Shown here: positions 4,321-31,533 of the stretch, piece after piece
Layout of the letters: the number at the start of each line of letters is the position of its first letter
Position numbering within the stretch: the first letter of the stretch is position 1
IMG/VR virus record: IMGVR_UViG_3300031566_000192
Location: 1 to 35,258 of that record
Source: a virus
DNA length: 35,258 nucleotides
Reading direction: 5' to 3' (one strand)
Translations under genes and position numbers: made by a program
The notes under the pieces: generated by a model
Databases searched by the model: none
Told to the model about the DNA's origin: nothing
What the model saw: only the letters and a program-made list of their open reading frames with translations

Positions 4321-4802
4321 TTGTTCAAGAATTATTTTCAAAGAGAGAGGGTGACTTTTTCTCATGGTTGATTCGATTTGCAACAAAACCACTTGCAAAG
4401 AAAACACCATTCAAAAACATACCGAGTCACAATTGTATTCGAAAAGGCCATTTCGTATATGAGTCAACATTCTTTTCGGGCGTTCGAATCGTTCCTTTTG
4501 AGTCCTGGAAAAAGATCAACACAATCGTCGGAGTCAATCAAAAGTCAATTCCGATTTCGGATTCACAATTCGAAAAGGTTTTTGTTGATATTTGGGGGAA
4601 AAAATATGATTGGAAAGGGATTCTTTATTTTGGTTTTTCTCTTGTGCGTTTTCGATTGTTCGGGAAACCGATCCCAAAGGTCAACAAATGGAACGACAAA
4701 AACAAATATTTTTGTTCCGAGGCAAGCGGAAAACTATTCGGAATCGACTATCAAATGACGGCACCCGTTCAAATTCTCGAGCTTGGTTGTCCGGACAATT
4801 GA
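4317..4802 (+). CDS. Permuted papain-like amidase/peptidase (YaeF/YiiX, C92-type)
   Basis: His-before-Cys order: ...IPSHNCIRKGHFVYESTFFSGV... then ...KKYDWKGILYFG...NKYFCSEASGKLFG. This fits the permuted NlpC/P60-like pattern as I remember it. The assignment is by eye only. Confidence 0.55.
   Translation: MIVQELFSKREGDFFSWLIRFATKPLAKKTPFKNIPSHNCIRKGHFVYESTFFSGVRIVPFESWKKINTIVGVNQKSIPISDSQFEKVFVDIWGKKYDWKGILYFGFSLVRFRLFGKPIPKVNKWNDKNKYFCSEASGKLFGIDYQMTAPVQILELGCPDN
4787..4801. promoter_or_regulatory. TTGTCCGGACAATTG motif (perfect 12-bp palindrome TTGTCCGGACAA plus 3 nt), a candidate regulator binding site
   Basis: The exact reverse complement CAATTGTCCGGACAA occurs at 24636-24650. The palindrome centre lies 41.5 nt upstream of the terS ATG. 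Confidence 0.55.
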
Positions 4803-4827
4803 TTTGCTCAATCTTTGGTGATATCCT
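4799..4827 (+). promoter_or_regulatory. Promoter candidate TTGATT-17-TATCCT with an extended -10 (TGa)
   Basis: TTGATT at 4799-4804, a 17-nt spacer ending in TGA, then TATCCT at 4822-4827. The terS ATG at 4834 is the 7th nt after the -10, and there is no SD. Confidence 0.45.
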
Positions 4828-4833
4828 TTTCGG

Positions 4834-5418
4834 ATGAAAGGAAAAAAACTCACAGTCAAGCAAGAAAACTTTATTCGGGAATATCTCGTTGACCTTAACG
4901 CAACACAAGCGGCGATTCGTGCCGGGTATTCCGCAAAGACCGCAAATGTCATTGGCCCGGAAAACCTTGCGAAACCTTGCATTGCGGAACGCATCAAACA
5001 AGCAATTGACGCACGACAAGAGAAAACCGAAATCACCGCCGAGAGAGTATTGCAAGAACTCGCAAACATTGCCTTTTCGAACGTTGAGGACTTCTTTGAG
5101 TCGGTGTCATACTCCGATGAGGAGGACGAGGAACTTGCGGGCCAGGGGCGAAAATATCATCAATTGAAATCGGACTTTTTAAAATCACCCAGGATTGCGG
5201 CCGTTCAATCAATCGAACCCGGTGCATATGGTGCAAAATTAAAGATGGCCGACAAGATGAAAGCACTCGAAATGATCTCAAGGCATTTGGGAATTTTCAA
5301 CGCCGACACTTCACAAAAACCGGAGAACAACAACGTCATTGATCTCTCGGGAATATCGTCGGAAAAACTCCGACAACTTCAAAAGGTTTGGAACGACAAT
5401 GACGATTCCGAGCAATGA
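4834..5418 (+). CDS. terS: Terminase small subunit (Terminase_2 / P27-type)
   Basis: The N-terminus LTVKQENFIREYLVDLNATQAAIRAGYSAKTANVIGPENL is the classic small-terminase HTH signature. The gene sits directly upstream of terL. Confidence 0.88.
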   Translation: MKGKKLTVKQENFIREYLVDLNATQAAIRAGYSAKTANVIGPENLAKPCIAERIKQAIDARQEKTEITAERVLQELANIAFSNVEDFFESVSYSDEEDEELAGQGRKYHQLKSDFLKSPRIAAVQSIEPGAYGAKLKMADKMKALEMISRHLGIFNADTSQKPENNNVIDLSGISSEKLRQLQKVWNDNDDSEQ

Positions 5419-6910
5419 TCAAATCAAAATCGAGCTGGCCAAAAGGCATTTGCTCGATTTCACACGACACACGAAAAAGAATTACAAAGTAAACTGGCAC
5501 CACGAACAATTGTGCGAGAAACTCGAGGCATTTGCCAGGGGCGAAATTCCCCGACTCATGGTTTTCATGCCACCGAGACATGGAAAGTCCGAACTCGGTT
5601 CAAGGCGATTGCCGGCCTATATACTCGGACAAAACCCGAACGCCGAAATCATTGCGTGTTCGTACTCGGCCGACCTGGCAACCAAGATGAATCGTGACGT
5701 GCAAAGAATCATCGACTCTCCGGAATACCGAGAGATTTTCCCGGACACTCAACTCAACACAAAGAACGTTGTTTCAAGTGCAAAGGGATCATATATTCGA
5801 AACGCAACCGAGTTTGAAGTCGTTGGACATTCCGGAGGATATCGTTGTGCCGGAACCGGAGGGGCCGTCACGGGAACCGGGGGAACTCATTTGATTGTTG
5901 ACGATCCGATCAAGAACATGGAGGACGCAAACTCCGAAACAATCCGTCAAAAGGTTTGGGATTGGTACACGTCAACACTATACACGAGACTTGAATCAAC
6001 CATTGAGGAAAACGGGAAAGAGTCCGAGGACGAGGGTTCGATCCTGGTCATTCTCACACGATGGCACGAGGACGATCTTGCCGGTCGATTGCTCGCCCTG
6101 GCCCAATCCGATCCGGGGGCCGATCAATGGGAAATCCTTGAATTGCCGGCAATCAAAGAAAACACAACAAACCCGGACGATCCAAGGAAAGTCGGCGAGG
6201 CCTTATGGCCTGGAAAATATCCGATCAAGAGATTGAACAAAATCAAAGCGTCCGTCGGTTCAAAGGTTTGGTCAAGTTTGTTCCAACAACAACCGACTCC
6301 GGGCGAGGGTGCGATCTTCTTGAGACAATGGTTGCAAAATTTTTATTTTACATTACCGGAAACCAGGTGCGACTTGAAACTCATTTCGTGCGACCTCACA
6401 TTCAAAGACACAAAGACCGCCGATTTCGTTGTCATGAGTGTGTATGCGAAATATGGTTCCCAGGTGTTTTTGATCGACAAAATAAAAAAGAGAATGGACT
6501 TCACAACAACCTTGACCGAGTTCAAGGCACTCGTTGAAAAGCACTCGGACGCAACGATCAAACTCGTTGAGGAAAAAGCAAACGGGGCGGCCTTGATCTC
6601 AATGCTTTCAAAGTCAATCCCTGGAATTGTTCCGGTGATTCCAAAAGAATCAAAGACCGCACGAGCACACGCCGTCACGCCTTTTTACGAGGCCGGGAAT
6701 GTTTTCTATCCTCATGAATCAATTGCACCTTGGATTGGTGATCATATTGTCGAAATGTCGGCGTTCCCTTTTGGACGCAATGACGACTCGGTTGACGCCG
6801 AAACTCAAGCAATCTCGAGATTCATGATCGGCCAGGCCGACGCATGGACAACCGAGGACGGCGAGGAGTACAATGAAAATGAAACACTAATTGAACAAAT
6901 GGAATGGTGA
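5399..6910 (+). CDS. terL: Terminase large subunit
   Basis: Walker A-like MPPRHGKSE and Walker B-like HLIVDDP, with a C-terminal nuclease-like acidic region. ATG 5399 is preferred over the track TTG 5339, which would overlap terS by 80 nt. Confidence 0.9.
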   Translation: MTIPSNDQIKIELAKRHLLDFTRHTKKNYKVNWHHEQLCEKLEAFARGEIPRLMVFMPPRHGKSELGSRRLPAYILGQNPNAEIIACSYSADLATKMNRDVQRIIDSPEYREIFPDTQLNTKNVVSSAKGSYIRNATEFEVVGHSGGYRCAGTGGAVTGTGGTHLIVDDPIKNMEDANSETIRQKVWDWYTSTLYTRLESTIEENGKESEDEGSILVILTRWHEDDLAGRLLALAQSDPGADQWEILELPAIKENTTNPDDPRKVGEALWPGKYPIKRLNKIKASVGSKVWSSLFQQQPTPGEGAIFLRQWLQNFYFTLPETRCDLKLISCDLTFKDTKTADFVVMSVYAKYGSQVFLIDKIKKRMDFTTTLTEFKALVEKHSDATIKLVEEKANGAALISMLSKSIPGIVPVIPKESKTARAHAVTPFYEAGNVFYPHESIAPWIGDHIVEMSAFPFGRNDDSVDAETQAISRFMIGQADAWTTEDGEEYNENETLIEQMEW

Positions 6911-12887: not shown

Positions 12888-13357
12888 CATTTGACATTGA
12901 ATGTTTCATTGACAACCTTGAAATATTTTTGAAAGACAATTTGAACGATGCACTCGCCGTGATTGATGCGGAAAAAAATTCCGGTTGGACAACCGAACCG
13001 ATTGATCCCGAGGCATATGTTTTCCAATCACTCGACAACTTGCCGATCAACTTTGATCCAATTCTTTTTTACGGAATTTCAGAGATCAAAGGCGAGGCAA
13101 TACCGAGTGCAACCTCGGCGATATATTCAATTGAGGTTTCCGTGATCAAGACGGACGACGAATCAAAAACCATAGGCCGAAAATTGTTGAGATATCAACG
13201 GGCCATGAAGTCGATTTTTGAAAAAAATTACTTTATAATAAACAATGTGAGGCCGAAAATTGAGATCAAGAGTTTGCAACCGATATCATTTAGGATGCAA
13301 AACTCAAGTAATCAATTCAAAGCAATTGGGATCGAAATTGAACTTTCGATCTTTTGA
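12884..13357 (+). CDS. Putative neck / tail terminator protein
   Basis: Assigned by position only, between the morphogenesis protein and the major tail protein. Track ORF with an ATGA overlap. Confidence 0.45.
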   Translation: MTFDIECFIDNLEIFLKDNLNDALAVIDAEKNSGWTTEPIDPEAYVFQSLDNLPINFDPILFYGISEIKGEAIPSATSAIYSIEVSVIKTDDESKTIGRKLLRYQRAMKSIFEKNYFIINNVRPKIEIKSLQPISFRMQNSSNQFKAIGIEIELSIF

Positions 13358-13375
13358 CAAACAAGGAGTTGAGTC

Positions 13376-14287
13376 ATGAGTTTAGACAATCCAAGAATTT
13401 TTTTCGGAGTCCACTCATTCACGCCTTATTGCCGACAAACTGGCCTCCCTTATGGGACGGCACTTGTAATCGGACAATCGGGTTTTTCACTTAGTGGAGA
13501 ACTGGCGAGTTTGAATGGAGGTTCGAACAAGTACCCTTGGGCGGTTGAAGAAACAAACATCACGGCCGAATTGAGCTTGACTATCAAGCAATATGAGGAT
13601 TGGATGATGCAATTGTTTCTTGGAAAAAAACCGACCGAGAACGGTGTTTCAACGGGAACCGTTGAAAACGTTGCCAACAAAAAAGGAACAACAATCAATG
13701 CAACATGGGGAATCGCAAGCGTTCAACCGAAAGTTGGATCGGAAAGCGATTTGAAATTCACAAAGTATGTGATCCAGGTTGTTGACAAAGATGCGGACAC
13801 GGTTGACGTGTATGCAATGTCGAATGCAGACTTTGCGAGAGGAACGGACAAGCAATTTGAGGACAACCTCCTCAAAATTACAAGTGCACCACTTGCAATC
13901 ACAGACGGCGTAGCAATTGAAGTACCAGGGTTCGGAATTACAATCACCGGCGGTTCGACGGTTGACTTTGCCGGAAACGGAGTTGAAAACGGAAACACAA
14001 TCACTTTTGACGTGAGAGTTCCGAGTTCAAAATCAATCTCGGCGAGATTCGGAGGTTCGGCCGACAATTTCCCGGAATTTGGGGCGATTGTTGTTGGACA
14101 ACAACGAGGAAACGGCGAAATGGTTGAGCTTGACATTTTCAGACTGAAAGCGGTTGGGATGCCACTTGGTTTCCAAGAGAAAACGTTTTCCGAGGGTGAA
14201 ATCACGGCACAAGCATTTTACGATGCTGACAAAAACGGTGTTTTTGATTTACGTCATATCACACCACAAGGCGCCGGCGTTTGCTAA
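13376..14287 (+). CDS. Major tail (tube) protein
   Basis: 303 aa, with RBS AAGGAG. It lies just upstream of the chaperone/tape-measure unit and is followed by a terminator. Confidence 0.6.
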   Translation: MSLDNPRIFFGVHSFTPYCRQTGLPYGTALVIGQSGFSLSGELASLNGGSNKYPWAVEETNITAELSLTIKQYEDWMMQLFLGKKPTENGVSTGTVENVANKKGTTINATWGIASVQPKVGSESDLKFTKYVIQVVDKDADTVDVYAMSNADFARGTDKQFEDNLLKITSAPLAITDGVAIEVPGFGITITGGSTVDFAGNGVENGNTITFDVRVPSSKSISARFGGSADNFPEFGAIVVGQQRGNGEMVELDIFRLKAVGMPLGFQEKTFSEGEITAQAFYDADKNGVFDLRHITPQGAGVC

Positions 14288-14316
14288 AATTTTTCAATTT
14301 ATTTTGAGAATACGAG

Positions 14317-14349
14317 GGGAGAGTTTTAAAACTCTCCCTTTATTTTTTT
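14317..14349 (+). terminator. Intrinsic terminator after the major tail gene
   Basis: A perfect 22-nt palindrome GGGAGAGTTTT/AAAACTCTCCC (14317-14338) is followed by TTTATTTTTTT. The stop of the convergent minus-strand gene lies inside the stem. Confidence 0.8.
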
Positions 14350-14535
14350 GAAGTACATTCGAATCATGGCCTCGACGTCCTCGACGCTTTCAATAACGTA
14401 ATATATTTGTTTTTGACGTGTCACAACTCTCGCACCGCCCTCCGGTGCCGGTGAAATGCTTGTGATCTCGCCCGGTTTCACCAATGCGGAACCATTGTCC
14501 CCGTGAAGTTCAAGCGAAATAAAGTTTGATTGCAT
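14326..14535 (-). CDS. Small protein (69 aa), third gene of the minus-strand moron, with a weak FlbD-like pattern
   Basis: Strong RBS AAGGAGAG lies 5 nt upstream of the ATG. The pattern I.L.L.G...I..I...P...V.ESVEDVEAMI..Y resembles the flagellar FlbD family by eye. Confidence 0.7.
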   Translation of the reverse strand: MQSNFISLELHGDNGSALVKPGEITSISPAPEGGARVVTRQKQIYYVIESVEDVEAMIRMYFKKIKGEF

Positions 14536-14550
14536 GGGAACTCTCCTTGT

Positions 14551-14733
14551 TCATTGCTTTTTAAAAAAACTCTTTCCATATACATTGTGACGCAATCTCT
14601 TGTGTTTGTGAATCACCCTGGCCACGTTCCAAAATGTTTCCCCACAACGTGAACAAACCTGGCAAGGTTGTCCGACAACTTTAATCGGTTTGTGACCGCA
14701 AAAAAAGAAAATGCACAAGGCACGTTTGAACAA
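14551..14733 (-). CDS. Small Zn-ribbon protein (about 60 aa), start uncertain
   Basis: FCGHKPIKVVGQPCQVCSRCGETF is a GHK...CxxCxRCG zinc-ribbon pattern. There is no in-frame ATG. Candidate starts are TTG 14733 (favoured, no overlap with the RHH gene), ATC 14766 (6 nt after AAGGAG) and the track TTG 14811. Confidence 0.5.
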   Translation of the reverse strand: MFKRALCIFFFCGHKPIKVVGQPCQVCSRCGETFWNVARVIHKHKRLRHNVYGKSFFKKQ

Positions 14734-14753
14734 TTGTTTCCATGTTGTTTCAT

Positions 14754-14930
14754 TTATTGTTTTGATGGTTTTCTCCTTTCCAAGAATTTCACCGGAGCGT
14801 TGTTGATCCAATGACGAACAAGTTTTGAAATGTTCCCCTCGGAATATAGGCCGGCCCGGAGTTTCAATTTGTGAAGTTCCTCGGCCGTCAATCTGATTTC
14901 AATTCGTTTTTCTTTTGTGTATTTTTTCAT
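14754..14930 (-). CDS. Ribbon-helix-helix (CopG/Arc/MobC-like) DNA-binding protein, 58 aa. It is absent from the ORF track because it is under 60 aa.
   Basis: Manual translation gives MKKYTKEKRIEIRLTAEELHKLKLRAGLYSEGNISKLVRHWINNAPVKFLERRKPSKQ. The basic beta-strand (RIEIRLT) followed by two helices is the RHH signature. Confidence 0.72.
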   Translation of the reverse strand: MKKYTKEKRIEIRLTAEELHKLKLRAGLYSEGNISKLVRHWINNAPVKFLERRKPSKQ

Positions 14931-14937
14931 TACAATA

Positions 14938-14966
14938 ATTGTACGGACAAAGATTCACTTTTGAAA
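14938..14966 (-). promoter_or_regulatory. Promoter candidate TTTCAA-17-TACAAT for the RHH operon (leaderless geometry)
   Basis: On the minus strand, TTTCAA is the complement of 14961-14966, followed by a 17-nt spacer and TACAAT (complement of 14938-14943). The RHH ATG at 14930 is the 8th nt after the -10, with no SD. Confidence 0.5.
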
Positions 14967-14989
14967 GGAAATTTTTTTCCATATATACT
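14961..14989 (+). promoter_or_regulatory. Promoter candidate TTGAAA-17-TATACT for the tail chaperone/tape-measure operon
   Basis: TTGAAA at 14961-14966, a 17-nt spacer, then TATACT at 14984-14989. The leader carries AGGAG upstream of ATG 15011. Confidence 0.6.
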
Positions 14990-15010
14990 ACAATAAAAAA
15001 AGGAGAAAAC

Positions 15011-15508
15011 ATGGAACTTGAACAACTAATTCCCGAACGTGCAACGATCGTCAAGACGATTGAGGGCGAGGGCGAAACAAGAGAACTTGAATTGAACTTT
15101 CGACCTTTCAACCTTGAGGATGAATCTTGGTTGAAACGTGCATATGGTGACGATCTCAAAAAACATTTTGAGCAAATGGACATGGAGGTCATTTCAAGAG
15201 TTGCTTTTCACCAATTGGAACTTGACTCAAAACGTGAGGTCATGAAATTAAAATTTTACGACATGGACGAGGATTCGGGCGAGGAGAGTGAAGTCTCAAA
15301 GACTGGCCCTCAAAAGATTCGTCAAATAATTGCCGGGCCGTCGGCACAAATGGAACTTTTGACCGCATTGTTGAAAACGAGAGGATTCTCAATGCCGATT
15401 CTCGAGGAACTTGGTGTTCACCTGGAAAATGAGGTTGAAAAAAAATCGCCGGGAAAGCAGAAAAAGGCCCGCAAAATGAAGTCAATTGGGCCGAGGTCTT
15501 TGACGTAA
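15011..15508 (+). CDS. Tail assembly chaperone (G-like, zero-frame product)
   Basis: ATG 15011 follows AAAGGAG. The protein is acidic, lies immediately upstream of the tape measure, and contains the slip site. Confidence 0.8.
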   Translation: MELEQLIPERATIVKTIEGEGETRELELNFRPFNLEDESWLKRAYGDDLKKHFEQMDMEVISRVAFHQLELDSKREVMKLKFYDMDEDSGEESEVSKTGPQKIRQIIAGPSAQMELLTALLKTRGFSMPILEELGVHLENEVEKKSPGKQKKARKMKSIGPRSLT

Positions 15509-15792
15509 TTGCGTCGGAGTACGGTTGGACTTTTGACGAGTTCAAGAAACTCACTCTCCGAACACTTCAAAGTTGTTTGGACATGATTGAGATTCGAACT
15601 CACAATGAATACGCAAAACAAGCGGCGTTGCATGGAGCGAAAATCGACTTCAAGCACGTCAAAAGAAAATTCAAAGAACTATCCGACGAGCAAAAAATCA
15701 TGATGGCAAATGTTTCTCGTGCCGCCGCTCAAAGGAAAGTTCAAGAAAAAGCCGAACAAGCAAGGAAAAAGAATGGCATCAACAACAAGTGA
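15011..15792 (+). CDS. Tail assembly chaperone GT-like fusion made by a -1 frameshift at 15439-15445
   Basis: The -1 frame is closed by TGA at 15436-15438 and opens exactly at the A8 run. It then reads KKIAGKAEKGPQNEVNWAEVFDVIASEYGWTFDEFKKLTLRTL... through to the stop at 15790-15792. Confidence 0.7.
15439..15445 (+). promoter_or_regulatory. Programmed -1 ribosomal frameshift heptamer A_AAA_AAA
   Basis: The zero-frame codons are GAA AAA AAA TCG. See the GT feature. Confidence 0.72.
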
Positions 15793-18622
15793 ACTCATAG
15801 TCAAGATCGGTGCAAACGCCGATCAATTTGCGTCCGAACTCGAAAAGGTTGGATCAACGACAAAGAATCTTGAAAAAAATCTTGCGACGGTTGCGAAAAT
15901 ATCCGGTGCCGCATTTGCCGCCGGAACCGCAACGATTGCCGCCGCAACAATTGCGGCCGGAAACTTTGAGGACAAGTTCACAAACGTTGTCACACTTTTG
16001 GACAAAGGTTCATTTGCCTCGAAAAGTCTTGAACAAGGAATTGAGGGACTCAAAAAAGGAGTCATTGAACTTGGTCAAGAAACGGGAGCGTCATTCGAGG
16101 ATTTGAACAAAGCATTGTTCGACTTGATTTCATCGGGTGTCCCGGCCGAGGAGGCCATTGACACTTTGAGAGTCACAACTCAACTTGCGGCCGCCGGTGC
16201 AACGGACACGGCAACGGCCGTCCAGGCATTGACCGCAACCATGACATCATTCGGCGAAAGTGCCGGAACCGCCGCCGAGATTTCCGAAAAGTTTTTCACC
16301 GCTCAAAAGTTTGGTGTCACAACGGTCGGTGATCTTGCAAGTGAGTTCTCAAAGGTTGCCGGAACCGCAAATTCACTTGGGATTTCGTTTGACGAGGCCC
16401 TCGCATCACTTTCGGCATTGACCGCCGACGGTGCGAAACCAACAAACGTCGCCGCAACACAATTGAAAGCAACGTTGACAAGTTTGATCAACGTTCAAAA
16501 GAACTTGTCGAGTGAATCGCAAGCAATACAAGAGGCCTTGAGTCTCCAAAATTTAAAGTCAAAGGGACTTGTCGGAGTTCTCGACGAGTTGAAAGTCGCA
16601 ACCGGAGGGAACGTCGTTGAAATGCAACGATTGTTCGGGAGTGCCGAGGGACTTGCCGTTGCACTTTCATTGACCGGAGCACAATCGGAACTCGTCAAAA
16701 AACAAATTGCCGAAATGGCCGACGAACAAAAACGTGCCGCCGTATTTGCCGACGCACTTGCGGTCAAACAAGAAAATTCAAAAAAAGCATTTGAGAGATT
16801 TTCGAGGGTGATCGAAACCGCCGCAATTGTACTTGGTGAACAATTCGCACCAATCGTTGCGAAAGCCGCCGAGTTGTTGGGAGAGTTTTTCAAAATACTT
16901 GTAAACAATCCAGTTCTCGCAAAAACCGCCGCCCTTGTCATTGGACTTGGAACGGCACTCGCCGGAATTGCCGCCGCCGGTGCACTTGCCGCAACCGCAT
17001 TTTTGAAAATCAGAGCGGCAATGGTTGCCTTGAGTATATCAACAAAAGTTCTTTCAATTGGAATCAAAGGTCTTGTCGGAGCGACGGGATTTGGATTGTT
17101 GTTGATTGTAATTTCCGAAATATATGCAAATTGGGAAACAATATGGCCGGCCGTTGTGAGAATATTCTCGGCAACGGTCAACGCACTTGCAAACCTTGGT
17201 GCCGGTCTTGGAAAAATCCTCAAAGGAATATTCACTTTTGACGGTGACGCAATTTCCGAGGGAATGGACATGGCCAAAAAAGCGATTTCCGATGGCCTTG
17301 ACGACATAATTGACGCCGTCAAAGGCAAGGAGGACGCAAAGGTTGTCGTTCCAATCACGGCGAAAGTTGATGAAAGCCAGGTTCAAGGCGAGGTTGACAA
17401 GCTTTCAAAAGCCGGTGAAAAAGGGAGTGTTTCGGTTGGTGCCGGTGCAACGGTTGCGAAAGGCGACTCGGGCCAGGCCGCAAAGGATGATTCACTTGCA
17501 AAATTGAAAGAAAATGAATCGGCAAAAACAAAAGCATTGAACGAGGAACAAAAAAAGAGAATCGCACAAAACAAAGCCGCACTTGATTTGATCCAAAATC
17601 AAAACGCCGGTGCAACACAACAAGAGCTTGATTTCATCAAAAGAAAAAATGAACTTGCACTTGCCGAGCAAGCGGCGGCACAAGAAAAAAATCAAGCGGT
17701 TCGTGATAGTGAACTTGAACTCATTGCCGCTCAACGTGCGGTGCTACTTGAGGAGGAACGTGTTTTTCTTGAGGAAAAACGAGCAATTCAAGCCGAGGAT
17801 CGTGAAACAAAGGCCGCATTGAACGAGGAACTCAAAGCACTTTCCGAATCGGAACGTGCCGAACTCAACCAACAAGAACTTGATCAAATTCAAGCTCAAA
17901 TTCTCTCCAAAAGAGAGGTTGAGGACTCGGAGGCGAAAAGAAAACTCGACTTTGAAATCAAAAGACGAAACCAATATTTGAAAGATGAAAAACAATTCGG
18001 AAAAACATCGGCCGAGATCAACAAGTTTCTTTCAAGTGAAAGCGTTCAACTTGCAAAACAAAGTGCAAACGAACTTGTTGGACTGGCCCAATCTAAAAAT
18101 AAAACGCTCGCAAGTATAGGCAAGGCCGCAAGCGTGACACAAATTGCGATAGATACTGCCACAAATGCGGCGTCAATTTTCGCAAAACTCAACGCACTTT
18201 TTCCAATCCTGGCACCTGGAATTGGTTTCGCCGGTGCGGCGGCAATCACCGCATTTGGTGCCGAAAAAACCGCAAACGTTCTCGCCGCAAATGAGGGGGG
18301 ACTTGTCCCGAGGAACCTTGGGACGCCCGGGAAAGACTCAATTCCTGCAAGTTTGACACCTGGAGAGTTGGTTGTCCCCGAAAAGAATTTTGACGAGGTC
18401 GTCAACTCGGTTGCGTCCCAACGTTCCGGAGGTTCATCGTCGAGCGATTCAAATTCCGCACTTGTTGGACTTCTTTCCTCGATTGATCAAAAATTAAATA
18501 AACTGGAAAGTCCGGTCACAATCAACGGTGACGTTCTTGACTCCGAACCTTTTGTTGATAACATCATGGAAAAAATTCGGGATGCAAGGGACTTTCGAAA
18601 CGCAACACTTGAGGGGCTTTAA
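15773..18622 (+). CDS. Tape measure protein
   Basis: 949 aa from ATG 15773. It has Ala-rich hydrophobic segments and long coiled coils, plus the C-terminal GGLVPRNLGTPGKDSIPASLTPGELVVP motif. Its position after G/GT fits. Confidence 0.9.
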   Translation: MASTTSELIVKIGANADQFASELEKVGSTTKNLEKNLATVAKISGAAFAAGTATIAAATIAAGNFEDKFTNVVTLLDKGSFASKSLEQGIEGLKKGVIELGQETGASFEDLNKALFDLISSGVPAEEAIDTLRVTTQLAAAGATDTATAVQALTATMTSFGESAGTAAEISEKFFTAQKFGVTTVGDLASEFSKVAGTANSLGISFDEALASLSALTADGAKPTNVAATQLKATLTSLINVQKNLSSESQAIQEALSLQNLKSKGLVGVLDELKVATGGNVVEMQRLFGSAEGLAVALSLTGAQSELVKKQIAEMADEQKRAAVFADALAVKQENSKKAFERFSRVIETAAIVLGEQFAPIVAKAAELLGEFFKILVNNPVLAKTAALVIGLGTALAGIAAAGALAATAFLKIRAAMVALSISTKVLSIGIKGLVGATGFGLLLIVISEIYANWETIWPAVVRIFSATVNALANLGAGLGKILKGIFTFDGDAISEGMDMAKKAISDGLDDIIDAVKGKEDAKVVVPITAKVDESQVQGEVDKLSKAGEKGSVSVGAGATVAKGDSGQAAKDDSLAKLKENESAKTKALNEEQKKRIAQNKAALDLIQNQNAGATQQELDFIKRKNELALAEQAAAQEKNQAVRDSELELIAAQRAVLLEEERVFLEEKRAIQAEDRETKAALNEELKALSESERAELNQQELDQIQAQILSKREVEDSEAKRKLDFEIKRRNQYLKDEKQFGKTSAEINKFLSSESVQLAKQSANELVGLAQSKNKTLASIGKAASVTQIAIDTATNAASIFAKLNALFPILAPGIGFAGAAAITAFGAEKTANVLAANEGGLVPRNLGTPGKDSIPASLTPGELVVPEKNFDEVVNSVASQRSGGSSSSDSNSALVGLLSSIDQKLNKLESPVTINGDVLDSEPFVDNIMEKIRDARDFRNATLEGL

Positions 18623-19207: not shown

Positions 19208-21000
19208 CGGCATATATTGACGAGGTTCCTCAAAAGAAAAGATTCATTCCGAACGTTGTTGTGAAAATGCGTAATATTTATTTTTCAATTCATGAACCCG
19301 ATTCGGGTTTGACCATTCCAAGGAATCAAAGAATTTTGAAAAACCTTGTTCTCAACCCGGCACAAGTTGACTTGAAAAAGGTCACACAAACAATTGCCTC
19401 ATATTCAATGCGACTTGTGCCGTCCCCGGCTTTCAATCAATTATTGCTTGACGACACAACCGTTTTATTGAATGAAACCGTCGAAATTTGGCTCGGCCGA
19501 ATTGGAACGAACATGGACTTTTCGGAATATTTCAAATTGATCGACACAAAAGTTCGTTCAATGGACTATCGTGACGGAACTTTCAACATCAAAACAAGAG
19601 AATCATTCGACCTCATGACTCGAGAGGTTTTCAACTTGCAAACAACTTTGACATTTCAAATTGATGATTCGGTCACAAGTTTTCAAGGTTCATTTATTGA
19701 CTGGCCCGCAAGCGGAAAAATTAAAGTCGGAAACGAGGTCATGACATATGCGTCGAGAGACGACAACAATCTTTTCGGGATCATTCGTGGTGTCGGTTCA
19801 ACGGCAACCGGTCACGGCCAGGGTGAAACCGTTTTTTACATTTGGGAAATCACTGGAAATCCGGTTGAATTATTGTTGCAAATACTTCTTTCGACGGGAA
19901 CGGGAGTGAACGGAACATATGACGTTTTGAGTGCCGGTCTTGGAATACCGGAAAACCTCATTGACGTTGCAAGGTTTGAATCAATTCGTGACGAATTTTT
20001 CCCAACCGAAACATATGACATTGATATTTTTGGAATTGGTGACACACTTTCGCAATTGCTTGAACTTGAGTTTTTGCAATCATTGAACGTGCGTTTTCTC
20101 ACGACTGAAAATCAAAAAATTGGGATCACCATTCTTGATCAAGCTGAATTTTCAACGGCGACAAAATCAATCAATGAAACATCAATTGAGGGCGCACCAA
20201 AATGGAGTGTTTCTCAAGACAAGGTTTTCAATGTGATCACAATGTCTTGGGACTATGATCCGGCAACGGAAAAATTTGGAACAATTGAGACATTCAAAAA
20301 CCAAGAATCAATTGACAAGTACGGTGAAACAAAACCTTTGAAATTCAAATTCAAAGGAATCAAGTCGGCGTTGGGAGGTGTTGCAATCATCAACGATCGT
20401 GTGACTCGACTCCTCGAGAGGTTCAAGACACCGACGCCGTCAATTTCGCTCAACACTCATATGGACAAGTCGCTTTATAACGTCGGCGACAAAGTTGTTG
20501 TGACATCGAGAGAGTTGCCAGGTTCAACCGGAACTCTCAATTTTGCCGACACACTGGAAATCATTTCAAGGTCAATTTCACACGCAACGGGGACGGTTCA
20601 ATTCAAACTTGCGTTCACAAGTTTCACGGGCGTCGGAAATCTTGCCTATATTGCACCGGCAAATTCAATCGTGACCGTTCTCAATCAAAGAACGTTCACA
20701 TTTGGGGCCGGCCTTGGTGATCAATGGGAAACGGGATATTTTGTGAGACTATACAACAAGACGACTTGCAAATATGAAACATTCGGAGGCGTTGAGGAAA
20801 TTCGTCAAATTGTTTCAATTGTCGGCGATCAAGTCACGGTCGATTCGAATTTCGAAACCGTAATTGATCCAAATGTTCACATTGTACGATTTGCAGACTA
20901 TGACGAAACGTCTCAAGCTCAAAAGGCCTTTTGTTTCGTCGGCCAGGGGGGCGAATTGCCGTTTGCAGACGGTGCACCTCCATATAGAATTACTTTATAA
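19204..21000 (+). CDS. Tail tip / baseplate hub protein
   Basis: 598 aa, assigned by position. ATGA overlap with the upstream gene. Confidence 0.55.
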   Translation: MTAYIDEVPQKKRFIPNVVVKMRNIYFSIHEPDSGLTIPRNQRILKNLVLNPAQVDLKKVTQTIASYSMRLVPSPAFNQLLLDDTTVLLNETVEIWLGRIGTNMDFSEYFKLIDTKVRSMDYRDGTFNIKTRESFDLMTREVFNLQTTLTFQIDDSVTSFQGSFIDWPASGKIKVGNEVMTYASRDDNNLFGIIRGVGSTATGHGQGETVFYIWEITGNPVELLLQILLSTGTGVNGTYDVLSAGLGIPENLIDVARFESIRDEFFPTETYDIDIFGIGDTLSQLLELEFLQSLNVRFLTTENQKIGITILDQAEFSTATKSINETSIEGAPKWSVSQDKVFNVITMSWDYDPATEKFGTIETFKNQESIDKYGETKPLKFKFKGIKSALGGVAIINDRVTRLLERFKTPTPSISLNTHMDKSLYNVGDKVVVTSRELPGSTGTLNFADTLEIISRSISHATGTVQFKLAFTSFTGVGNLAYIAPANSIVTVLNQRTFTFGAGLGDQWETGYFVRLYNKTTCKYETFGGVEEIRQIVSIVGDQVTVDSNFETVIDPNVHIVRFADYDETSQAQKAFCFVGQGGELPFADGAPPYRITL

Positions 21001-23367: not shown

Positions 23368-24036
23368 ATGTCTATAGCTTATGGGTTCAACGAAAAAGGG
23401 TATTTTACAAGTCCTATTCCGATGCAAAAAAACCCTTTCAAACAAGGAGAATATTTGGTTCCATCAAACGCAACATTGATCGAACCTCCGGACGCTTCTA
23501 GCTATTCAGCCGACAAATTGCCTTTGTTCAACGAGGATTCAAAAACGTGGGAACTTGTTGACTCTCCGGCAAAAATCGCCGATGACAACGCAAAACTTGA
23601 GGTTGTGAATGATTGGGGCGTTTGTTTGTACGAAAGAGATTCAAGCGGAAACGTTGTTTTGCGTGATGTTCAAGAGGTTGATTCGGAAACAACGCAAATT
23701 TCAACTCAATTCAACAATGAACAATCGTTGAAAAACTTAAAAGAAACAATGGACGGCGCAATCATTCAAAAATCATTTGAAATGACCGGCGCAAGTTCAA
23801 TTGAAAGCGCCCAGGCATTCATGCAAGCTTTTCAAGTTCGAATTGCAAACGCTTCAAAATATGTCAATGATGGCCTTGTTGTTTTTTGTGCGACAACAAG
23901 TTTTCAAAAGTTTGACGATTTGGACACTGAACAAAAAATCGTTGATTATTATTCGGAAACTCTTGTTGAAATGGACAAGTTTAGGAATCAAAAAATTCAA
24001 GAATATTTGCAATCAAAGTCGGAACTTGGTCTTTAA
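23368..24036 (+). CDS. Hypothetical protein, possibly a tail fiber assembly chaperone
   Basis: It sits directly after the fiber gene. The N-terminus MSIAYGFNEKGYFTSPIP...LIEPPD loosely resembles Tfa-type chaperones. Confidence 0.4.
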   Translation: MSIAYGFNEKGYFTSPIPMQKNPFKQGEYLVPSNATLIEPPDASSYSADKLPLFNEDSKTWELVDSPAKIADDNAKLEVVNDWGVCLYERDSSGNVVLRDVQEVDSETTQISTQFNNEQSLKNLKETMDGAIIQKSFEMTGASSIESAQAFMQAFQVRIANASKYVNDGLVVFCATTSFQKFDDLDTEQKIVDYYSETLVEMDKFRNQKIQEYLQSKSELGL

Positions 24037-24602
24037 TTTCTAGGCGTCAAACCAAAAGTTGTGATGATATATTTGTCATTTGAAATTGGTTTGACGCCCT
24101 CATGAAAATAACGCCAAGTTGATGGGAAAATCACAAGTGTTCCGGCTTTTGGTTTTATTTCGATTTCCTGGAAAGGGAATTTTGTTTCGCCACCCTCAAG
24201 AACATCATTCAAATAAAAAATCGGCGCAAGGAATCGCGCATCGTTCAAATTTCGCTCATCGTTGTCGGTATGGGGTTTAAAAAATCCTTGTCCTTTGAAT
24301 GATTTTTGCATTTGCAATCCCCCCCAAAAAATTGGCGTTCCTTTCAAATTGAAATATCTTGATTTTATTTGGCACAATGCAATCTCAAGAATTTTTGAAT
24401 ATTTTGAATTGAGATTTTCCGAATCAATGTGCCAGTCTATAGAATTTTTCACTCCAGGTGAATAACCGCCACCGGTTTTCCCGTTGAATTTGTTTGGTGA
24501 CGTTTCAAACGCCTCAATTGTGTCAATGCAAAGTCGGTCACTTATAGCATTTTCCCAAACAAAAATTCCCGTTTTTTTCTCAAACTCTTTGTTGTATTCC
24601 AT
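24033..24602 (-). CDS. 2OG-Fe(II) oxygenase (prolyl-4-hydroxylase-like)
   Basis: HxD in FKPHTDNDE, a distal His in WRYFHEG and a basic residue in DKYIITTF. RBS AAAGGAG. Confidence 0.8.
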   Translation of the reverse strand: MEYNKEFEKKTGIFVWENAISDRLCIDTIEAFETSPNKFNGKTGGGYSPGVKNSIDWHIDSENLNSKYSKILEIALCQIKSRYFNLKGTPIFWGGLQMQKSFKGQGFFKPHTDNDERNLNDARFLAPIFYLNDVLEGGETKFPFQEIEIKPKAGTLVIFPSTWRYFHEGVKPISNDKYIITTFGLTPRN

Positions 24603-24635: not shown

Positions 24636-24650
24636 CAATTGTCCGGACAA
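24636..24650. promoter_or_regulatory. Second copy (reverse complement) of TTGTCCGGACAATTG, overlapping the -35 of the oxygenase promoter candidate
   Basis: CAATTGTCCGGACAA at 24636-24650. On the minus strand this reads TTGTCC-15-TATATT with TGa extended -10 geometry. The palindrome centre lies 42.5 nt upstream of ATG 24602. Confidence 0.55.
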
Positions 24651-24692: not shown

Positions 24693-24721
24693 TTGTGAGA
24701 ACTCTCAAAATCGAATATGAT
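24693..24721 (+). promoter_or_regulatory. Promoter candidate TTGTGA-17-TATGAT (leaderless geometry)
   Basis: TTGTGA at 24693-24698, a 17-nt spacer, then TATGAT at 24716-24721. ATG 24728 is the 7th nt after the -10, with no SD. Confidence 0.45.
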
Positions 24722-24727
24722 TCAAAG

Positions 24728-24967
24728 ATGAACGAAATAAACATGACATTGACAATCCTTGGTTCACTTGTTTCACTTTTGTTGCTACTCAATGCACATT
24801 TTACAAGAAAAACACTTGAGAAAATCACAACCGTTGAAATTCAACTTGCGGTTTTGATTTCAAAACACGATTCGACCGACGAACGTGCAAGGAAAAATGA
24901 ATTTGAAATCGAATTATTGAAAAGCAAGATCAACAAACTCGAAACAAAGGTTTTGAGTAATCAATAA
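24728..24967 (+). CDS. Membrane protein with an N-terminal TM helix and a coiled coil (holin or i-spanin-like)
   Basis: MNEINMTLTILGSLVSLLLLLNAHFT followed by a heptad-rich tail. The start was chosen from the promoter geometry. The track start GTG 24695 has no usable RBS. Confidence 0.55.
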   Translation: MNEINMTLTILGSLVSLLLLLNAHFTRKTLEKITTVEIQLAVLISKHDSTDERARKNEFEIELLKSKINKLETKVLSNQ

Positions 24968-30360: not shown

Positions 30361-30665
30361 TCTTTCACCTCAAATTCGGCGTCAATTGCCGGTTGAATTT
30401 CAAGTTCTTGTTGTCCGTCCGATCTCTCGATCAATTCAAGATTTTCCTCGGCATATTCAACGAACGCCTCAACGGTTTCCGTTCGATTCTTTCCGTTCTC
30501 ATACCTATACATGACCATTGCAACGGCGTTTTTGAAAAACTCCGATCCCGAAACCTCAACGTAATTCAAAGCAAGAATCAAGTTTTGTTTCATTTTCTTG
30601 TCAAAATATTTTCCAGGGATCAACGAAATCAATCCAAATTTTTCATGCAAATTTTGTTCACTCAT
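30357..30665 (-). CDS. Hypothetical protein with an acidic C-terminus (102 aa)
   Basis: Track ORF, with ATGA overlaps at both ends. Confidence 0.75.
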   Translation of the reverse strand: MSEQNLHEKFGLISLIPGKYFDKKMKQNLILALNYVEVSGSEFFKNAVAMVMYRYENGKNRTETVEAFVEYAEENLELIERSDGQQELEIQPAIDAEFEVKE

Positions 30666-31492
30666 TTCAAACCTCTCAAAATGTATTCAATAACTGGCAC
30701 CGTCACGGCGTTTCCTATTTGCTTGAACCTTTGTGAGTCGCTCACAAGTTCCGTCCAACCCTCGGGGAATCCTTGCAAGAGTTCACAGTCCTCCGGGTGC
30801 AATGTAAACTTTTCGCCGTCAATGTCACGAAAGTTCTTTGACGAAAAGGAACCACAACCCGGGCCGGTTGTGAGTGTGTTTGCTCGCCCGTCCCTGGTTT
30901 CCCTTTCCTCCTTGTATTTTTCACGGTCTTTCGGATATCGCCAAGAGCTTGACCATGCAATCAACTCGTCCCAACGCTCGCCCGTTTCCGGCATTGGTTC
31001 CGTCAAATCCCAATTGAACCAATAAAGACGACGACGTTTTTGAGGCGTGAAATGATCCGAATTGATTTCGATTGCATCGACACCAAGTGTTTCGGAAATC
31101 AAGTCACGATCTTGCTTTGACATCGAGGCGACGTTTTCCAAAAGGAAATGTTTTGGTTTTTTTGTTTTTAAAATTTGAACGTATGTCCAAAAGAGTCCGG
31201 ATTTCGTACCTTTCAAACCTTGTCGATTTCCCTTTGCAATTGAAAGGTCGTTACACGGTGAACCTCCGACCAAAAGATCAAAGTCCGGCAAGCATTTCAT
31301 CAAGTACGGCCAGGCCTCCAGGTTTCGAATGTCACCAATGTTTTTATTTGCGTTCAATGGAAAACGTTGCTCGAAAACTTTGATTGCATGTTGATCAATT
31401 TCAGACCAACCGACGCACTCGGAACGTTCAAAGGTGTTGTGAATAGCAAGTTCAAAACCTCCGACGCCGGTGAACAAACTCAAATATTTCAT
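30662..31492 (-). CDS. DNA (cytosine-5) methyltransferase, compact (276 aa)
   Basis: Motif I LSLFTGVGGFE, motif IV GGSPCNDLS, motif VI LLENV, motif VIII QKRRR and motif X QIGNAVTVPV. ATG 31492 follows AAGGGAGAG. The track start is TTG 31528. Confidence 0.9.
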   Translation of the reverse strand: MKYLSLFTGVGGFELAIHNTFERSECVGWSEIDQHAIKVFEQRFPLNANKNIGDIRNLEAWPYLMKCLPDFDLLVGGSPCNDLSIAKGNRQGLKGTKSGLFWTYVQILKTKKPKHFLLENVASMSKQDRDLISETLGVDAIEINSDHFTPQKRRRLYWFNWDLTEPMPETGERWDELIAWSSSWRYPKDREKYKEERETRDGRANTLTTGPGCGSFSSKNFRDIDGEKFTLHPEDCELLQGFPEGWTELVSDSQRFKQIGNAVTVPVIEYILRGLK

Positions 31493-31515
31493 TTTCTCTC
31501 CCTTAAATGAGGAAA

Positions 31516-31533
31516 GGCCCTTTTTCAAGGGCC
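31516..31533 (-). other. Stable hairpin with a GAAA tetraloop between the DUF669 and methyltransferase genes
   Basis: The minus strand reads GGCCCTT GAAA AAGGGCC followed only by TTTCC. This could be a weak terminator, attenuator or RNA-stability element. Confidence 0.45.

Follow-up and report, generated by a model that had tools for sequence, protein, structure and literature searches.

The question raised by the IMG/VR virus record IMGVR_UViG_3300031566_000192 (positions 1 to 35,258, i.e. the whole stretch analysed here, referred to as the window) is why a small group of minus-strand genes should lie within the tail gene module of a phage-like genome of ~35.3 kb. Three minus-strand open reading frames (ORFs), g1, g2 and g3, occupy positions 14326-14930 between a “tube” gene and two small “chaperone” genes; these names refer to position only, and the tube and chaperone proteins had no match in Pfam, PHROGs or PDB. 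A preliminary description of the sequence had read the group as an inserted cassette, i.e. a moron, led by a ribbon-helix-helix (RHH) regulator. The antiparallel three-gene unit was recovered with all of its described features in place, and the three genes are real. On the whole, we lean slightly towards regarding the region as a leftward transcription unit that is led by a conserved phage transcription factor, and not as an imported cassette.

The leftward unit and its RHH gene

Genes and signals of the unit, in window coordinates:
14754-14930, minus strand: g1, 58 amino acids (aa), ATG start
14551-14811, minus strand: g2 reading frame; conserved body 14551-14766, 71 codons from ATC 14766
14326-14535, minus strand: g3, 69 aa, ATG start; Shine-Dalgarno sequence (SD) AAGGAG at 14543-14548, 7 nt upstream of the ATG
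14314-14349: GC-rich hairpin with T-run (12-bp stem 14314-14341), terminating the tube gene on the plus strand
14938-14965, minus strand: sigma-70-like promoter of the unit, TTCAAA-16-TACAAT; TACAAT is kept in relatives
14961-14989, plus strand: sigma-70-like promoter toward the chaperone and tape-measure genes, TTGAAA-17-TATACT; 10/12 matches

By its family profile, g1 is a NikA/Arc-type RHH DNA-binding protein, in agreement with the initial assignment. The Pfam family NikA-like (PF21983) was matched by 12 of the 18 members of the g1 family with a best E-value of 3e-9, and the RHH protein of the related lineage L009 reached 32.1 bits (E = 1.3e-7). The best solved structure for the family profile was NikA in PDB entry 2ba3 (E = 0.023), with the β-strand and helices of which the g1 pattern K.I.IRLT..E...LK..A...G.NvS..vR aligns; the pattern conserved throughout the g1 family reads ..I.iR.T..E.n.iK.kA..Y.eGN.SeY.. 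Searches with g1, g2 and g3 returned nothing above cut-off from Pfam, PHROGs, NCBIfam or PADLOC.

Relatives were collected by searching IMG/VR and a metagenome collection with the tube protein, which resulted in more than 50 loci with tube identities of 34-92%. In ~45 distinct loci, down to the tube identity of 34%, the hidden Markov model (HMM) of g1 detected an ORF of opposite orientation directly behind the tube gene, and among the loci extending at least 700 nt beyond the tube gene L019 was the only one without an RHH gene. In many loci the RHH gene is alone, 2-80 nt from the tube stop codon. Because it follows the tube gene in antiparallel orientation in almost every relative, the RHH gene belongs to the syntenic core of a large uncultured phage lineage and is not a moron.

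The idea of an insertion was not upheld by base composition either: the GC content of the cassette (0.42-0.43) equals that of the flanks (0.42-0.47), and for this reason the cassette is not considered foreign DNA. GC and AT skew are reversed over 14150-14900, as expected for minus-strand coding. The ratio of nonsynonymous to synonymous substitutions (dN/dS) was ~0.1-0.35 for g1, g2 and g3 versus ~0.1 for the tube gene, and by this measure all three genes are under purifying selection.

Both boundaries proposed earlier, i.e. an own promoter and the terminator of the tail gene, were identified. The -35 elements of the leftward and the rightward promoter overlap. The hairpin at 14314-14349 is the sole one at the 3′-end of the minus-strand unit, and its stem holds the stop codon (14326-14328) and last codons (KGEF) of g3. 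Folding energies were -23.3 kcal/mol for the plus strand (z = -5.3, reached by none of 200 shuffles) and -14.3 kcal/mol for the minus strand (z = -4.4). A hairpin is also present in L061 and L064, and the stem changes seen in L002 still pair.

One relative encodes the RHH as part of a larger protein of 167-173 aa (L008:5407-5928, minus strand, which corresponds to L107:9501-10004); there it forms the C-terminal domain, the N-terminal one being a GIY-YIG nuclease (Pfam E = 8e-6), a homing-endonuclease-like layout. The only relative in the genome collection, L104 (CAZNER010000010.1, 37,408 bp), has the tube gene and the antiparallel RHH gene; the contig was binned with a metagenome-assembled genome of Candidatus Saccharibacteria, which is a possible but unreliable hint of the host.

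A candidate operator at three transcription units

Copies of the candidate operator in the window:
14939-14950: TTGTACGGACAA (TTGTCCGTACAA on the g1 strand), a 12-bp TTGT-N4-ACAA near-palindrome
4787-4798: TTGTCCGGACAA, abutting the putative -35 element (TTGATT) of the terS promoter
24639-24650: TTGTCCGGACAA, between the oxygenase gene (minus strand) and the holin-like and CHAP lysis genes (plus strand)

The candidate operator of g1 overlaps the -10 element of the gene and is 8 nt from its ATG. Upstream of the g1 start, the 13-nt block TTGTCCGTACAAT, which contains the -10 element, was invariant in the window, L001, L009 and L062 and had one mismatch in L061; the remaining intergenic sequence around it varies, and synonymous sites are saturated across these lineages. 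Besides the g1 site, the perfect palindrome was present exactly twice in the window. Its copy at 4787-4798 is centred ~41 nt before the ATG of terS (4834), a gene without an SD. In total, three sites with at most one mismatch were found in the window versus 0.27 expected, a number that none of 100 shuffled sequences reached.

The same arrangement of the terS site was found in three relatives, i.e. L106 (the L061 phage), L107 (the L008 phage) and L105 (the L064 phage). Copies of the palindrome in these relatives, counting the terS and the oxygenase/lysis positions together, lie at L106:19944-19955, L106:21-32, L107 ~19929-19940 and L105:19814-19824. L106 has the same 12-mer before terS, a one-mismatch copy at the oxygenase position and a two-mismatch copy at the RHH position, and L107 has TTGTCCGTACAA before terS. 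In L105, the RHH gene has TGTGGCTACAA and terS is preceded by TGTGGGAACAA; both sites read TGTGG..ACAA, and this count was reached by 2 of 100 shuffles. The β-strand of the RHH protein reads KTIKIRIT in L105 versus KRIEIRLT, and the site centre co-varies with the β-strand in this phage. Across 40 non-redundant lineages, exact TTGT-N4-ACAA was enriched 23-fold upstream of RHH starts (1.2 per kb versus 0.05 per kb elsewhere). The enrichment includes lineages without g2, and g2 is therefore not regarded as the primary binder of the palindrome. Searches of IMG/VR with back-translated terS, oxygenase and TerL led to unrelated or distant loci, which were without the palindrome.

Because the 12-mer of the g1 promoter recurs at terS and in the oxygenase/lysis region, the RHH protein is probably an autoregulated late-gene regulator, and the preliminary statement that no function could be assigned was too pessimistic for g1. 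The gene has no SD, and its mRNA is probably leaderless, because 7 nt separate the end of the -10 element from the ATG.

Three transcription units in the window seem leaderless or near-leaderless, with a -10-like hexamer 6-7 nt before an SD-less ATG: terS (4822-4836, TATCCT/GATATC), g1 (14928-14943, TACAAT) and the holin-like gene with ATG 24728 (24716-24730, TATGAT). Unlike these unit starts, internal genes have strong AAGGAG sites. As a further observation, CCGG is 2.2-fold over-represented in the whole window (202 versus 92 expected, 0/100 shuffles), a C5 cytosine methylase is encoded at 30662-31528 (minus strand), and two of the three palindromes have CCGG as their centre, so that the operator could be affected by methylation.

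Proposed regulatory circuit

In the circuit that we propose, an RHH dimer or tetramer would bind the TTGT-N4-ACAA palindrome. At its own promoter, bound RHH protein would act as a repressor and so autoregulate the probably leaderless mRNA. Since the terS site has its centre near -41, where activators usually sit, the protein would probably gate or activate the packaging and head operon. The divergent tail and lysis/oxygenase units may be influenced as well. The product of g2, a predicted zinc ribbon with a basic tail and probably nucleic-acid binding, and that of g3 would be passengers that are co-expressed with the regulator, and transcription of the minus strand would end at the hairpin common to the tube gene. 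For a widespread phage lineage without a cultured member, this amounts to a simple testable circuit of one small RHH protein, one 12-bp site and three units.

Zinc-ribbon protein g2 and its start

The following residues (numbered from the ATC) were invariant in all versions of g2: C18, G24, H25, C38, R40, C41 and E43. Four of these, C18, H25, C38 and C41, make up a zinc-ligand set on two knuckles, and the second Cys of the C-x4-C in the window is not conserved. With all four ligands present, g2 is a predicted CHCC zinc-ribbon protein with predicted metal binding; it ends in the basic C-terminal tail. The AF2 model (pLDDT 65) consists of an N-terminal helix followed by β-hairpins. The YgiT-type finger TIGR03831 matched g2 at 19.2 bits (cut-off 20.2), no match to Ogr_Delta was obtained, and the fold search against PDB yielded generic zinc-knuckle fragments only, with E > 1. 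In the word-index search g2 found only itself, and in the alignment search six clusters, all in the same slot. The dN/dS range was 0.12-0.34.

Of the earlier proposal for gene 2, a zinc ribbon of the DUF1660 type, the first part holds by virtue of the invariant Cys/His/Cys/Cys and the second does not. DUF1660 (PF07874) was rejected after six members of the g2 family had returned no Pfam match at E ≤ 10; it was also unmatched at E ≤ 1 by the g2 versions of the window, L001, L008 and L009, with the limit that HMMER filters may drop very weak matches.

The starts of g2 differ among lineages:
Window, 14773-14778, minus strand: SD AAGGAG, with 6-nt spacer 14767-14772, before the in-frame ATC 14766 and inside the 3′-end of g1
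Window and L001: no canonical start; SD AAGGAG, 6 nt and in-frame ATC
L002: no canonical start; same SD and spacer as in the window, in-frame ATT
L064: no canonical start; SD AAGGA, 7 nt and in-frame ATC
L061, L008, L009 and L062: ATG overlapping the g1 stop codon (ATGA)
L063: GTG after GGAGG

There is no in-frame ATG in the window g2, and the sole canonical start, TTG 14811, is without an SD and overlaps g1 by 58 nt, in a stretch that is closed by a stop codon in L002. In L002 and the distant L064, no canonical start was found anywhere upstream of the zinc motif. Judged from its reading frame, the window g2 must be translated either from the ATC after the strong SD or by way of a -1 slip from g1; the slip, which would give an RHH-zinc-ribbon fusion, is an alternative because g2 is read in the -1 frame with respect to g1, with A_AAA or A_AAG runs just upstream.

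It is rather unlikely that the window g2 is a decaying pseudogene, which has lost its ATG via a small deletion and is no longer translated. The ancestral ATG (TAATG, 14751-14755) is indeed present and out of frame in the window and L001, at 8 nt from the conserved TGG versus 12 nt in L061 and L008, and L002 has a further 27-nt deletion. However, the window, L001, L002 and L064, the last of them much more distant, each keep an open frame, intact zinc ligands and an SD followed by 6-7 nt and an in-frame AT(C/T), and dN/dS was 0.34 between the window and L001 and 0.12 between the window and L061. Simple decay is less likely than non-canonical expression, because ORF and ligands are intact in L064, which is only ~40% identical to the window. 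Among conserved genes that lack a canonical start codon, g2 is a clean natural example.

A 46-aa ATG ORF in another frame, at 14613-14753 (minus strand), was weighed as an alternative gene 2. It was rejected because L002 has lost both the ATG and the frame of this ORF, whereas the zinc frame is conserved everywhere. The ORF is open in L001, and it starts at the ATG overlapping the g1 stop codon (TAATG), i.e. at the remnant of the ancestral g2 start.

Fold of g3

The 69 aa of g3 and its strong ribosome-binding site were confirmed. The g3 model, with five β-strands and a C-terminal helix (pLDDT 72), resembles in its fold phage FlbD/SwrD-like proteins. Its best matches in BFVD were phage proteins annotated as “flagellar and swarming motility protein” (FlbD/SwrD-type), with a best E-value of 5.9e-4 within a range of 5.9e-4 to 4e-2 and TM of 0.67-0.75, and superposition on phage proteins with this annotation gave TM 0.71-0.75, a root-mean-square deviation of 2.3 Å and 27% identity. 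In 17 members of the g3 family, Pfam returned no match to FlbD/SwrD (PF06289) at E ≤ 10. The fold search against PDB produced weak PH-like or chemokine-like matches only (E > 0.1), and sequence searches of PDB with g3 and the tube protein returned nothing. In an exhaustive search, the g3 profile found only 11 clusters among 1.84 billion representatives. Contigs of eight close homologues show the same arrangement, and relatives at 37-41% identity occupy the same slot. The dN/dS of g3 was 0.09-0.46.

Distribution of g2 and g3 and the varying cargo

Occurrence of the genes as determined with improved HMMs:
g1, g2 and g3: window, L001, L002, L008, L061, L063 and L064 (seven lineages)
g1 and g2: L009-type and L062
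RHH gene with neither g2 nor g3: ~37 lineages

The co-occurrence check suggested in the preliminary description showed that the three genes are kept together in seven lineages, with the order g1-g3-g2 in L063. Every homologue of g2 or g3 with an examinable genomic context lies in this slot. Amino-acid identity was 40-56% for g2 and g3 versus 80-83% for the tube protein. As judged from these sequences, g2 and g3 are lineage-restricted genes found only downstream of the RHH gene, and they add two new families of small proteins, one with a CHCC zinc ribbon and one with an FlbD-like model, known only from this operon.

In other lineages the cargo is of another kind. L052 and L104 carry a gene for a 144-aa lipoprotein-like product (phrog_4002; L052:4454-4888, minus strand) that has a signal peptide and a lipobox, several small ORFs are present at L045:4480-5151 and 5361-5842 and at L042:4462-4611 and 4932-5580 (all minus strand), and a LamG-domain gene (L012:4966-6754, plus strand) lies between the tube and RHH genes. 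Since the cargo differs among lineages, the unit does accumulate accessory genes, and the RHH gene could be used as a search anchor for accessory genes in these phages. Among the properties of a moron, the own promoter and terminator are present as predicted features; absence in close relatives and a distinct base composition are not. With nine and seven lineages, respectively, and absence in ~37, g2 and g3 fit a moron only at the scale of the wider lineage.

Alternative explanations

Several points weigh against a leftward unit led by a late-gene regulator. That the RHH protein binds the palindrome is something we infer, and activation or repression is read from the position of the site. On its own, the window g1 scored 13.5 bits against NikA-like, with a cut-off of 27. 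Exact TTGT-N4-ACAA was found near the RHH start in only 10 of the 40 lineages (15 with one mismatch), and the L008/L107 phage keeps the terS site and has no palindrome at the promoter of its GIY-YIG-RHH gene. The promoter calls are provisional, as they assume sigma-70-like recognition; L009 and L062, with an 11-nt deletion at its place, do not keep the plus-strand promoter toward the chaperone genes. Furthermore, the screen for other DNA-binding proteins in the window covered ORFs of at least 90 aa.

A distinctly less probable explanation is an accessory locus (moron-like, anti-defence or superinfection-exclusion), in which the RHH protein mainly regulates variable host-directed cargo including g2 and g3. 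The cargo beside the RHH gene does vary, from the genes of L052/L104, L045 and L042 to g2 alone in L009/L062 and g2 with g3 in others, the unit comes with a promoter and a terminator of its own, and the evolution of g2 and g3 is much more rapid than that of the tube protein. On the other hand, ~37 lineages lack both genes, and in L015, L032, L044 and L057, which were examined closely, the RHH gene is alone and therefore functions without cargo. It is also the first gene of its operon, when aca genes are usually last, the operator is found at the terS and lysis/oxygenase regions as well, the composition is not foreign, and the defence-system library PADLOC gave no match. Of the accessory system suggested at the outset, there remains that the slot gathers variable accessory genes in other lineages, whereas the RHH gene itself is core. 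It is unlikely that a different regulator, of the phage or of the host, binds the palindrome, with the RHH protein as a member of the regulon or as a non-transcriptional DNA handler comparable to the relaxosome accessory protein NikA. A 12-bp perfect palindrome would suit helix-turn-helix (HTH) dimers too, the L008/L107 phage has the palindrome at terS and not at the RHH promoter, and the nearest named relatives of g1 are relaxosome proteins; but distant lineages with little else in common show a specific enrichment of the palindrome at RHH starts, the centre of the site co-varies with the RHH β-strand in L105, and the window yielded no relaxase, oriT or partition ATPase.

The preliminary analogies to P22 immI and to toxin-antitoxin loci were not borne out. 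In a type II toxin-antitoxin module or an immI-like region, the RHH protein would be an antitoxin or an Arc-like repressor of a toxin or antirepressor, which we consider extremely unlikely here. The RHH gene leads the operon, single g1-family members weakly matched CopG/TacA antitoxin families (E 0.056 and 0.069) and P22_AR_C (E 0.039), and g2 is marginally similar to the MqsA/YgiT zinc knuckle. Nevertheless, g2 and g3 matched no toxin or Ant family in Pfam, NCBIfam, PADLOC or PHROGs, the RHH gene is without g2 or g3 in most lineages (~37), g2 has no canonical start codon in four lineages, and family scans of the larger ORFs of the window revealed no integrase or repressor.

When the late-gene regulator is combined with the most far-reaching options for g2 and g3, the result is a joint reading that we hold to be quite improbable as a whole. 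In this combination the RHH protein would be the master late switch of a large uncultured lineage (genomes of ~35-38 kb, no cultured representative), using one palindrome for self-repression and for activation of the terS operon with its leaderless mRNA; AUC/AUU initiation or a -1-frameshift RHH-zinc-ribbon fusion would be the only source of g2 in some members, giving two forms of the regulator, and the FlbD-like g3 would act on a host MotAB-type stator, either in the flagellar motor or in a stator-like complex for defence or transport.

Genomic context of the window

Further genes of the window:
4834-5418, plus strand: terS (Terminase_2, E = 3e-38)
After terS: head and packaging genes for TerL, a Mu-type portal, a Mu-I-like protease and the capsid
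13376-14287, plus strand: the 303-aa “tube” protein, at the position of the major tail (tube) protein
15011-15508 and 15577-15792: two small “chaperone” ORFs downstream of the cassette
15710-18622: tape-measure protein, 970 aa, after the chaperone ORFs
24033-24602, minus strand: 2OG-Fe(II) oxygenase
Plus strand: holin-like gene (ATG 24728) and CHAP lysis enzyme
Leftward: replication module with exonuclease, helicase, C5 methylase, DUF669 and AAA_24

The ORF at 15577-15792 overlaps the start of the tape-measure gene by ~80 nt. Scans of the whole window with Rfam and for tRNA genes gave nothing. Among cultured phages, there was no match to the DNA of 13300-15800, nor to the tube protein by tblastn.

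Comparison with known systems

In P22 immI, the RHH repressors Arc and Mnt are encoded among late genes with the divergent promoters Pant and Pmnt. The present locus is similar in its small RHH gene and back-to-back promoters within a late/structural region, and in operators that overlap core promoter elements. It differs in that there is no antirepressor gene (none of the unit is Ant-like) and no second RHH gene, the RHH gene is syntenic throughout the lineage, the candidate operator is present also at terS and lysis/oxygenase, and nothing that was found points to lysogeny.

Both by sequence and among solved structures, the g1 family is nearest to NikA, the RHH protein of the plasmid R64 relaxosome; a relaxase or oriT context is absent from the window. 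The similarity points to an RHH fold in which DNA is probably read via the β-strand, and it says nothing on mobilisation. The Pseudomonas protein AmrZ is a dual-function RHH regulator, and SvtR of SIRV1 is a virus-encoded RHH protein controlling structural genes. The likeness to these is that of a small RHH factor acting on several promoters, including those of virion genes and of its own gene, with the difference that regulation is here deduced from site positions.

Aca/anti-CRISPR operons and morons have in common with the locus a small DNA-binding regulator, variable small genes, an own promoter and terminator, and a location inside the structural module. In contrast to these, the regulator comes first, is often alone, and is an RHH instead of the usual HTH protein, its operator is common to core late promoters, and the composition is not foreign.

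As to the passengers, the g3 model superposes on phage proteins with an FlbD/SwrD annotation, which are of similar size (60-70 aa), although the 17 members of its family had no Pfam match and model confidence is moderate. The predicted zinc-binding g2 (~65 aa), located beside a late-gene control region with TGT...ACA dyads, is reminiscent of P2 Ogr/P4 Delta and of YgiT/MqsA, but it had no Ogr_Delta match and its YgiT finger is just below cut-off. In the literature, no description was found of this arrangement or of phage FlbD-like proteins. The locus is best described as a variant of a phage RHH regulator locus which carries two undescribed families of small proteins.

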